The notes beneath the pieces are model-generated. The model did not search any database, was not told the origin of the DNA, and was given only the letters and a program-made list of their open reading frames with translations. A stretch of 64,000 nucleotides of DNA from Acidobacteriota bacterium. Its GTDB lineage: Bacteria; Acidobacteriota; Polarisedimenticolia; JACPZX01. This document shows positions 45,112-46,412 of this stretch, piece by piece (position 1 is the first letter of the stretch; every line of letters starts with the position of its first letter). Location of the stretch: assembly GCA_016195325.1 (NCBI GenBank), contig JACPZX010000067.1:15559-79558 (forward strand), read 5' to 3'. A program made the position numbers and the translations under genes.

Positions 45112-46241
45112 CAGGTGCTCCCTCCCGCGGACTTCGCCGGCCGCTTGTAGTGCGGGGACTTGACCACGCGCGCGCGGGTCGGCTTGCCCCGGATGATGAC
45201 GTCGAACTCGCGCCCCTCCCGGGCGGCCGCCGCGGGGAGGTACGCCATGCCGAGATTCTTCTTGAGGAACGGCGTGAAGGTGCCGCTCGTCACGTGCCCG
45301 GCTTCGGCCCCGTCGACCTGCGCGGGGTAGCCGTGACGGGCGATGCCGCGCTCGACCATCTCGAACGCCACCAGCCGGCGCGCCGCCCCGGACGCCTTCT
45401 GCCGCGCCAGCGCGTCGCGGCCGATGAACTCCCCCTTGTCGAGCTTGAGGATGAAGTTCAGCCCGGCCTCGAGGACGGTTGTCGTGTCGTCGATGTCGTT
45501 CCCGTAGAGCATCAGACACGCCTCGAGCCGCAGGGTGTCCCGCGCGCCGAGGCCGCACGGCGTGAGACCGAAGGGCGCGCCGACCCCCATCAGAGTGCCC
45601 CACAGCTCGGCGGCCCGGCTCGACTCGCAGTACAGCTCGAAGCCGTCCTCGCCGGTGTAGCCGGTGCGGGCGACGAGCGCCGGCACGCCGGCCACGCGGC
45701 TCTCGGCGAAGCTGAAGGCCTTGAGGGCGTGGATGTCCGCCTCGGTGAGGCCGCGGAGGATCGCCTCCGCCTCGGGCCCCTGGATGGCGATCTGCGCGAA
45801 CTCGTCGCTGCGGTTCAAGGCCGTCACCCCCTTCGGCAGGTGAGATTCGACCCAGGCGAAATCCTTCGACGCGTTCGAGGCGTTCACGCAGATGAAGTAC
45901 CGGTCGCGGGCCATGCAGTAGACGATGATGTCGTCGACGAAGGTCCCCTTCTCCGTCGTGAAGGCGCTGTACTGCGCGAGGCCCGGGGCGAGGCGCGCGG
46001 CGTCGTTGCACGTGAGGCGCTGCACCGCGGCGAGGGCCTCGGCCCCGCGGATCTCGATCTCACCCATGTGGCTCACGTCGAAGAGGCCGGCGTGCGTGCG
46101 CACCGCGAGATGCTCCTCGACGACTCCGTGATACTGCACGGGCATGTCCCAGCCGGCGAAATCGACCATCCGCGCGCCGAGAGCCCGGTGCGTCTCGTTG
46201 AGGGGCGTCTTGCGGACGGGGGTGGGGGACGTATCGCTCAG
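45111..46241 (-). CDS. gcvT: glycine cleavage system aminomethyltransferase T (probable CUG start; first ATG at 46169)
   Basis: [28 protein letters not shown] aligns residue-for-residue with the E. coli GcvT N-terminus [24 protein letters not shown]. These residues lie upstream of the first ATG (46169). The only start-like codon is CTG at 46241-46239, preceded by GGGAGG at a 5-nt spacing. Confidence 0.8.
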   Translation of the reverse strand: [376 protein letters not shown]

Positions 46242-46412
46242 GGATGCCTCCCGGTGCCGAGGCGCCGGATCGCGCGCGGGCGCACGAAGCGCTTCGACGA
46301 CGGTCTCACGAGTTTGGAGTTCGGCCTGTCGGGACCTTGGAGGTCGCTCTTCAGGCGGATAACGCGCCCAAGGGAATGCAGAACGGACGCTACCACAGCC
46401 GCCGCGAGGCGA

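Follow-up and report, generated by a model that had tools for sequence, protein, structure and literature searches.

A conserved CUG codon as the probable translation start of gcvT in a clade of Acidobacteriota

The gcvT gene of a soil Acidobacteriota genome, which encodes the glycine cleavage system's T-protein, is very probably translated from a CUG codon. The gene lies on the minus strand of a 64-kb stretch of contig JACPZX010000067.1 (positions 15,559 to 79,558; this whole stretch of 64,000 nucleotides [nt] is referred to as the window). The CUG, at positions 46241-46239 of the window, lies upstream of the first canonical start codon of the frame, ATG 46169. The same layout, a Shine-Dalgarno (SD) motif followed by CTG, was kept in 11 further independently assembled lineages that share 64-93% amino-acid identity with the window. 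Use of this codon would provide a clean natural case in which the gene for a core enzyme has long kept a CUG start, served by a strong SD whose spacing is fixed.

On the minus strand the frame of ATG 46169 has no stop until TGA 46415-46413 is reached upstream, and this same TGA terminates a HEM4/hemD-like open reading frame (ORF; 46413..47222). A preliminary description, made from the sequence of the window, had claimed that there is no ATG, GTG, or TTG in frame between this stop and ATG 46169 and that CTG 46241-46239 is the sole start-like codon upstream. Both claims held when the ORF listing and the frame itself were read. The first ATG, GTG, or TTG of the frame is at 46169, and the 81 open codons include one in-frame CTG, the remaining Leu codons being CTC or CTT, with no Ile codons. 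The SD and 5-nt spacer that the same description had placed before the CTG are also present (GGGAGG 46252-46247, CATCC, CTG). ATG 46169 has no SD-like motif upstream (ctcggcgcgcggATG), and the methionine that it encodes, Met25 of the proposed product, belongs to the residues conserved throughout GcvT proteins (MVDFAGW).

The preliminary description had further proposed that the conserved N-terminus of GcvT is encoded 5' of the first ATG. Family models, alignments with solved structures, and a gain in score all agreed with this proposal. The CTG-started product matched NF001567 (450.7 bits; cut-off, 300) and TIGR00528 (410.4 bits; cut-off, 235.85) over their full length, and it matched the Pfam domains GCV_T (PF01571; 318.5 bits) and GCV_T_C (PF08669; 81.6 bits). 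Position 1 of Pfam GCV_T falls on residue 14 of the CTG-started version and position 2 of TIGR00528 on residue 10. The alignments with the T-proteins in PDB entries 1yx2, 1woo, and 3a8i (Escherichia coli) begin at residues 2-5 of those proteins and at residues 9-10 here, and the 24 codons before the ATG correspond to residues 2-20 of these solved T-proteins. Those 24 codons add 22.9, 17.9, and 24.5 bits on three GcvT family models, and the ATG-started product enters GcvT models first at profile positions 17-25. In 15 related loci the residues K-T-P-L, H, and G-A-[RK] of the stretch between CTG and ATG are invariant, and the codons for these invariant residues vary synonymously (ACG/ACC/ACT, CCC/CCG/CCT, CTC/CTG/CTT, CAC/CAT, and GGC/GGA/GGT). 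These comparisons indicate that the codons between CTG and ATG are coding and that translation begins upstream of ATG 46169. The N-terminal region of the T-protein is reported to be essential for its action on the H-protein (PMC7733448, which cites Okamura-Ikeda et al. 2003). A protein shortened by 24 residues is therefore unlikely to work.

Relatives were found by protein search, their DNA was retrieved, and the codons upstream of the FAGW anchor were compared. The related loci, which carry L numbers below, come from different samples in NCBI, JGI, ENA, and Logan assemblies, and the named relatives at 61-65% identity belong to the class Candidatus Polarisedimenticolia (Acidobacteriota). A contig search of genomes listed only matches with at most 59% identity, which were used as an outgroup, and a pattern scan of metagenome contigs returned mostly distant relatives. 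Twelve lineages have CTG as the homologous start codon, one has GTG, and two have TTG (Table 1). It stands 5-9 codons before [RK][KR]TPL, and the residues between the start and RKTPL differ in both sequence and number among the related loci. GGAGG, GGGAGG, or GGAGAG is found exactly 5 nt before the start codon in all lineages but L114, where GGAGAG is one base further upstream (spacer of 6 nt). The codons on both sides of the CTG differ among relatives, and 5' of the SD neither frame nor sequence is conserved across the related loci. Variation of the codon only as NTG, with a GTG nested among the CTG lineages and a TTG in their sister group, marks it as a start codon, and retention of the SD-N5-CTG layout in so many independent lineages excludes chance. 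Thus, the alignment of gcvT 5' regions that the preliminary description had suggested as a check did reveal conservation of the CTG. The contrary outcome that it had envisaged, relatives with ATG or GTG and an error in the window, did not materialize because the CTG is kept in relatives down to 64% identity.

The other CTG lineages likewise have no canonical codon at the expected start site. In three of them (L082, L088, and L113) an in-frame GTG, ATG, or TTG is available at least 11 codons further upstream, and gene callers pick it. A wider set gave the same division. Among the matches listed, 89 of 89 other loci had ATG (65 loci), GTG (17), or TTG (7) where a start is expected, and each of the 16 loci without a canonical start had an SD and CTG. 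All 86 listed loci with at most 59% identity start with ATG, GTG, or TTG.

Table 1. Features of the gcvT region of the window and the homologous start codons of related loci
Feature	Position or locus	Strand	Remark
Promoter-like element	46387..46416	minus	Recognized by conservation only
Inferred 5' leader, ~140 nt	46242..46380	minus	Length inferred from position of promoter-like element
Shine-Dalgarno GGGAGG	46247..46252	minus	Followed by 5-nt pyrimidine-rich spacer CATCC, 46246-46242
CTG, proposed initiation codon	46239..46241	minus	Sole start-like in-frame codon 5' of the conserved N-terminus
gcvT coding sequence as proposed	45111..46241	minus	CTG start, 376 codons, stop TGA 45113-45111
gcvT codons 2-24, conserved N-terminal segment	46170..46238	minus	Lost when the gene is called from ATG
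Internal ATG (Met25)	46167..46169	minus	First canonical start; used by ATG/GTG/TTG-only gene callers
gcvH, 128 amino acids	44725..45111	minus	ATG 45111-45109 overlaps gcvT stop by one base (TGATG)
gcvPA	43365-44723	minus	Glycine cleavage operon
gcvPB	41878 to about 43368	minus	GTG start; glycine cleavage operon
Homologous codon CTG	Window; L081/L094/L102 (93%); L082 (80%); L083/84/86 (79%)		Amino-acid identity to window in brackets
Homologous codon CTG	L112 (78%); L111 (77%); L114, L115 (75%); L113 (73%)		Amino-acid identity to window in brackets
Homologous codon CTG	L088 (70%); L116 (66%); L117 (64%)		Amino-acid identity to window in brackets
Homologous codon GTG	L093 (67%)		Amino-acid identity to window in brackets
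Homologous codon TTG	L118, L119 (64-65%)		Amino-acid identity to window in brackets

The CTG start is already called by NCBI annotation for the window gcvT and for a relative with 93% identity. GenBank record MBI3449801.1, from a metagenome-assembled genome labelled 'Acidobacteria bacterium', is a protein of 376 amino acids (aa) that is the same as the window product except for M in place of the CTG-encoded L. HZE89430.1 is the 93% relative, and the corresponding coding sequence (L081, 997-2127) starts with CTG in the DNA. The CUG start of gcvT is thus present in GenBank annotation, and a literature search found no paper that describes it. For the same genes, JGI, ENA, and Logan give shortened products of 345-352 aa that begin MV[DE]FAGW (P0003-P0007, P0009-P0011, and others). 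This truncation affects at least 17 of the 50 closest database proteins. In this clade, GcvT systematically loses 24-27 residues when gene callers accept only ATG, GTG, and TTG, and the segment that they remove is the one reported as necessary for interaction with the H-protein. Two relatives, L118 and L119, have a TTG start (1935-1937 in both), yet their deposited calls (348 aa) begin at an internal ATG. Because this TTG start was also missed, the truncation does not result solely from callers ignoring CTG.

Other explanations for the start of gcvT (initiation at Met25, an error in the sequence, use of a different non-canonical codon, or reinitiation) each conflict with these data and are improbable even when taken together. 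The one that survives best, itself very unlikely, is initiation upstream of RKTPL but at a site other than the CTG, for example at ACG 46232-46230 or by reinitiation at cTGA 46240-46238. ACG is a near-cognate codon, and the CTG is overlapped by the TGA that terminates a 52-codon ORF (46396..46238). However, ACG is found at no fixed conserved position, and the CTG alone holds a fixed distance from the SD. The GTG of the upstream ORF (46396) is inside the conserved -10 region of the promoter-like element, so it is 5' of the inferred transcript start, and the NTGA overlap is absent in L082, L083, L111, L113, L114, and L115. Reinitiation after the ORF ending at cTGA was rejected because that ORF is not conserved and starts 5' of the inferred transcript start. 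Read-through from hemD, which is in the same frame as gcvT in the window, was rejected because of the stop codon, the promoter-like element, and the genes inserted between the two in relatives. Coupling to a translated upstream ORF by stop/start overlap was not found for gcvT, and the promoter-like element parts hemD from gcvT.

Even less probable is a start at ATG 46169, which would yield a T-protein of 352 residues without the usual N-terminus and would require that the upstream similarity is a non-coding relic. This ATG is the first canonical codon of the frame, and it is the start used in most JGI, ENA, and Logan calls of relatives. However, those truncated calls are expected of gene callers that accept ATG, GTG, and TTG only, and the ATG has no preceding SD. 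A relic would decay, whereas in 15 loci, with identities as low as 64%, the upstream family residues have stayed the same while their codons changed synonymously, and the upstream codons improve the fit to GcvT models by 17.9-24.5 bits. Every lineage has a conserved SD-N5-NTG upstream (with the 6-nt spacer in L114), and the N-terminal region that would be lost is reported to be functionally essential. The idea that an ATG or GTG start was turned into CTG by an error of sequencing or assembly, or by a private single-nucleotide polymorphism, has in its favor that one base change gives a canonical start and that the sequence comes from a metagenome-assembled genome, but it is scarcely credible and is refuted by the comparison, because 11 further lineages, sampled and assembled independently, have the same CTG.

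The CTG start appears to have arisen a single time, in the ancestor of a clade of Acidobacteriota, and to have been kept thereafter. In a neighbor-joining tree built from the GcvT protein with the N-terminus left out, the CTG lineages form one clade, with the GTG lineage nested within it and the TTG pair as its sister. This monophyly, with the nested GTG and sister TTG, points to a single origin followed by retention. Any change of the C in CTG produces a stronger, canonical start. The C is present in 12 of the 13 clade sequences. The same genes have 78 fourfold-degenerate sites in columns where the residue is invariant; only 2 of these (2.6%) are equally conserved, and the mean majority fraction at such sites is 0.62. 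The C of the CTG looks constrained in this comparison.

If gcvT is translated from the CUG, GGGAGG at its optimal 5-nt spacing would place the 30S subunit at the codon, and the initiator formylmethionine (fMet)-tRNA would read it despite a C:U mismatch in the codon's first position. The near-perfect SD at a fixed optimal spacing would partly compensate for the weak CUG, and the product would be a 376-residue GcvT with a normal N-terminus. Initiation with fMet at this CUG is what we infer from the sequence comparisons. The weak codon may have been kept by selection, most likely because it limits T-protein synthesis or renders it responsive to initiation-fidelity factors. The simplest idea is that the CUG would keep T-protein output low relative to the H- and P-proteins, whose genes each start at an ATG or GTG. 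More speculatively, T-protein synthesis would be made dependent on initiation fidelity. In E. coli, initiation becomes less faithful when one-carbon metabolism is perturbed (PMC7949028). Since the one-carbon pool is fed by gcvT, a CUG start could couple T-protein synthesis to fidelity.

A further reading, which is rather unlikely, is that this lineage of Acidobacteriota uses CUG regularly as a start codon under selection and does not simply tolerate it as an oddity. Such use might take either of two forms. One is a lineage-wide relaxed discrimination against CUG, which would fit the finding of two apparent CUG starts among the ~55 genes of the 64-kb window. The other is gene-specific control, in which T-protein synthesis would rise as initiation fidelity drops. 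A fidelity-sensitive CUG device of this kind could take the place of the absent glycine riboswitch. A search of the window with ARAGORN found no tRNA. The findings raise the question of whether some Acidobacteriota use CUG far above the ~0.05% of model genomes and, if CUG use is that frequent, whether the weak codon is a tuning or a regulatory device.

Several considerations weigh against translation of gcvT from a selected CUG start. CUG initiation in E. coli is about 1-2% (range, 0.02-3%) of AUG initiation (bioRxiv 10.1101/063800), and CUG initiation complexes are less stable (PMC11497404). A CUG start on a housekeeping enzyme is unexpected unless little of the protein is required or the lineage reads CUG better. 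The case for initiation at the CTG is built from sequence comparison, and selection on the weak codon has modest support, with one site and p of about 0.03. GenBank start calls are heuristic, as illustrated by the two NCBI records of a neighboring permease, described below, that use different non-canonical codons.

CTG, ATT, ATC, and ATA make up the rare bacterial start codons of translation table 11. As with other rare table 11 starts, the CUG of gcvT would be a near-cognate codon that is read by the initiator tRNA after an SD. Unlike rare starts that appear sporadically in single genomes, it is on a core metabolic gene and is clade-wide (64-100% protein identity). ATG, GTG, and TTG together account for 99.95% of starts in model genomes, and other codons account for about 0.05% of genes (bioRxiv 10.1101/063800). 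The GcvT encoded in the window shares the two-domain fold of the canonical T-proteins of E. coli (3a8i), B. subtilis (1yx2), and T. maritima (1woo), as well as the N-terminal motif (K/R)TPL...H...GA(R/K)M, but the genes for those proteins start with ATG, GTG, or TTG.

The E. coli infC gene, which encodes initiation factor IF3, has an AUU start and is autoregulated, since IF3 discriminates against its own AUU. The likeness to gcvT is a conserved non-canonical start on a housekeeping gene; in infC the start is kept because weak initiation is useful. The two differ in that the logic of infC is known and its codon is AUU, whereas the codon of gcvT is CUG and any regulator or feedback is putative. 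The glycine riboswitch (RF00504) controls gcvT operons in some bacteria, for example B. subtilis. Like those operons, the window has a glycine cleavage operon that is led by gcvT and has a 5' leader of more than 100 nt. In contrast to them, the leaders of the window and of 14 related loci have no match to RF00504 or another Rfam family. Rfam searches of the window at 45900-46700 in permissive mode, with E values up to 10, gave no match to the glycine riboswitch or any other family, and searches of the 14 related loci at the gathering score gave no glycine riboswitch and nothing relevant.

To look for other apparent CTG starts in the window, the whole open frame of 17 other ORFs with at least 20 open codons before the first canonical start was scanned against Pfam. 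One stood out, a MacB/FtsX-type duplicated permease gene on the minus strand (39478-41889), located downstream of gcvPB and 4 kb from the gcvT CTG. The apparent start of this permease gene is also a CTG. The open frame runs from 41877 to 39481 (799 codons; homologues have 800-812 aa). The first ATG, GTG, or TTG is codon 121, yet MacB_PCD aligns from residue 16. The candidate start, CTG 41877-41875, is the first codon after the gcvPB stop TAG 41880-41878, with GAGG 5 nt before it, and in a relative with 91% identity (L094, 1400-3790) the CTG (3784-3782) overlaps the gcvPB stop as CTGA. Thus, for the permease, unlike gcvT, the start abuts or overlaps the stop of the upstream gene. The nonsynonymous-to-synonymous ratio (pN/pS) between the window and L094 is 0.18 in codons 6-120, and the remainder of the gene gives 0.16. 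A ratio near that of the rest of the gene indicates that the region 5' of the first canonical start is translated and under purifying selection. NCBI annotation starts the permease at CTG in the window genome (MBI3449798.1, which lies on one contig with MBI3449801.1) and at an ATC inside the first membrane helix in a relative (HZE89434.1). Two apparent CTG starts among ~55 genes, compared with ~0.05% in model genomes, hint at a habit of the lineage without proving it.

A scan of the window for SD-anchored CTG codons gave too much noise, since no other Leu codon is as common here as CTG; gcvT was the single case without a canonical codon upstream in the open frame. A gene for a MocR-type protein with GntR and aminotransferase domains (ORF 14002-15648, minus strand) has an in-frame CTG at 15576, with GGAGG 5 nt before it. 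This CTG, which is 26 codons before the GntR domain and between two canonical candidates, may be another CTG start.

The promoter-like element upstream of gcvT consists of a -35 sequence, TTGATC (46416-46411), which contains the hemD stop TGA, and an extended -10 sequence, TnTGnTAnnnT, at 46397-46387 (TGgTAGCGT, 46395-46387, in the window). The spacer between them is 18 nt in the window and 17 nt in 11 of 14 relatives. TTGA and TnTGnTAnnnT are invariant in all 15 aligned gcvT loci (TTGAyC-N17/18-TAnnnT with the extended -10 TG). A simple scan for the sigma-70 consensus reported no promoter at this element. The leader that would follow is 113-155 nt long in CTG lineages, in contrast to only ~70 nt in L118 and L119.

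RNAalifold found no consensus structure in the 15 leaders, and the folding energy of the window leader is ordinary compared with that of shuffled sequence (z = -0.28). A block, (A/C)CGCCCGC(G/C)G, is conserved about 30-45 nt after the -10 (about 46335-46373 in the window); in the window it reads ATCCGCCTGAAGAGCG (46360-45) and is flanked by CCTTGG/CCAAGG. In seven relatives (e.g., L082, 380-405, and L083, 2795-2822) the block is in a hairpin, GGyyGCG...CGCGrCC, with exchanges between T-A, C-G, and A-T pairs plus G-U wobbles. Across these seven relatives the hairpin is 85.7% paired and two pairs covary, which is not significant with so small a set, as 64 of 500 shuffles reach the covariation score. 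The spacer between SD and start is pyrimidine-rich in the window and in all relatives (CATCC, CTCCC, CCTCC, and similar) and is partly complementary to the SD, for example GGGAGGCATCCC and GGGAGGCCTCCC (46242-46252 of the window and the equivalents in relatives). A small local hairpin of the spacer with the SD could mask the gcvT SD.

Downstream of gcvT the order in the window is gcvH, gcvPA, and gcvPB, and genes with the Pfam labels GCV_H and GDC-P are found likewise in relatives. The GCV_H gene is at the same position, and the order of the GDC-P genes (452 and about 495 aa) is likewise unchanged. The gcvH gene has its own SD motif, GGGAGGGAG, upstream. In several relatives a gene with a CarboxypepD_reg domain is directly 5' of gcvT (L083, 1858-2739; L111, 709-1590; L113, 428-1312; L115, 422-1324; L116, 762-1655), and hemD is just before that gene in L083, L111, and L116. 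The CarboxypepD_reg-domain gene is absent in the window and in L081, where hemD abuts the gcvT promoter.

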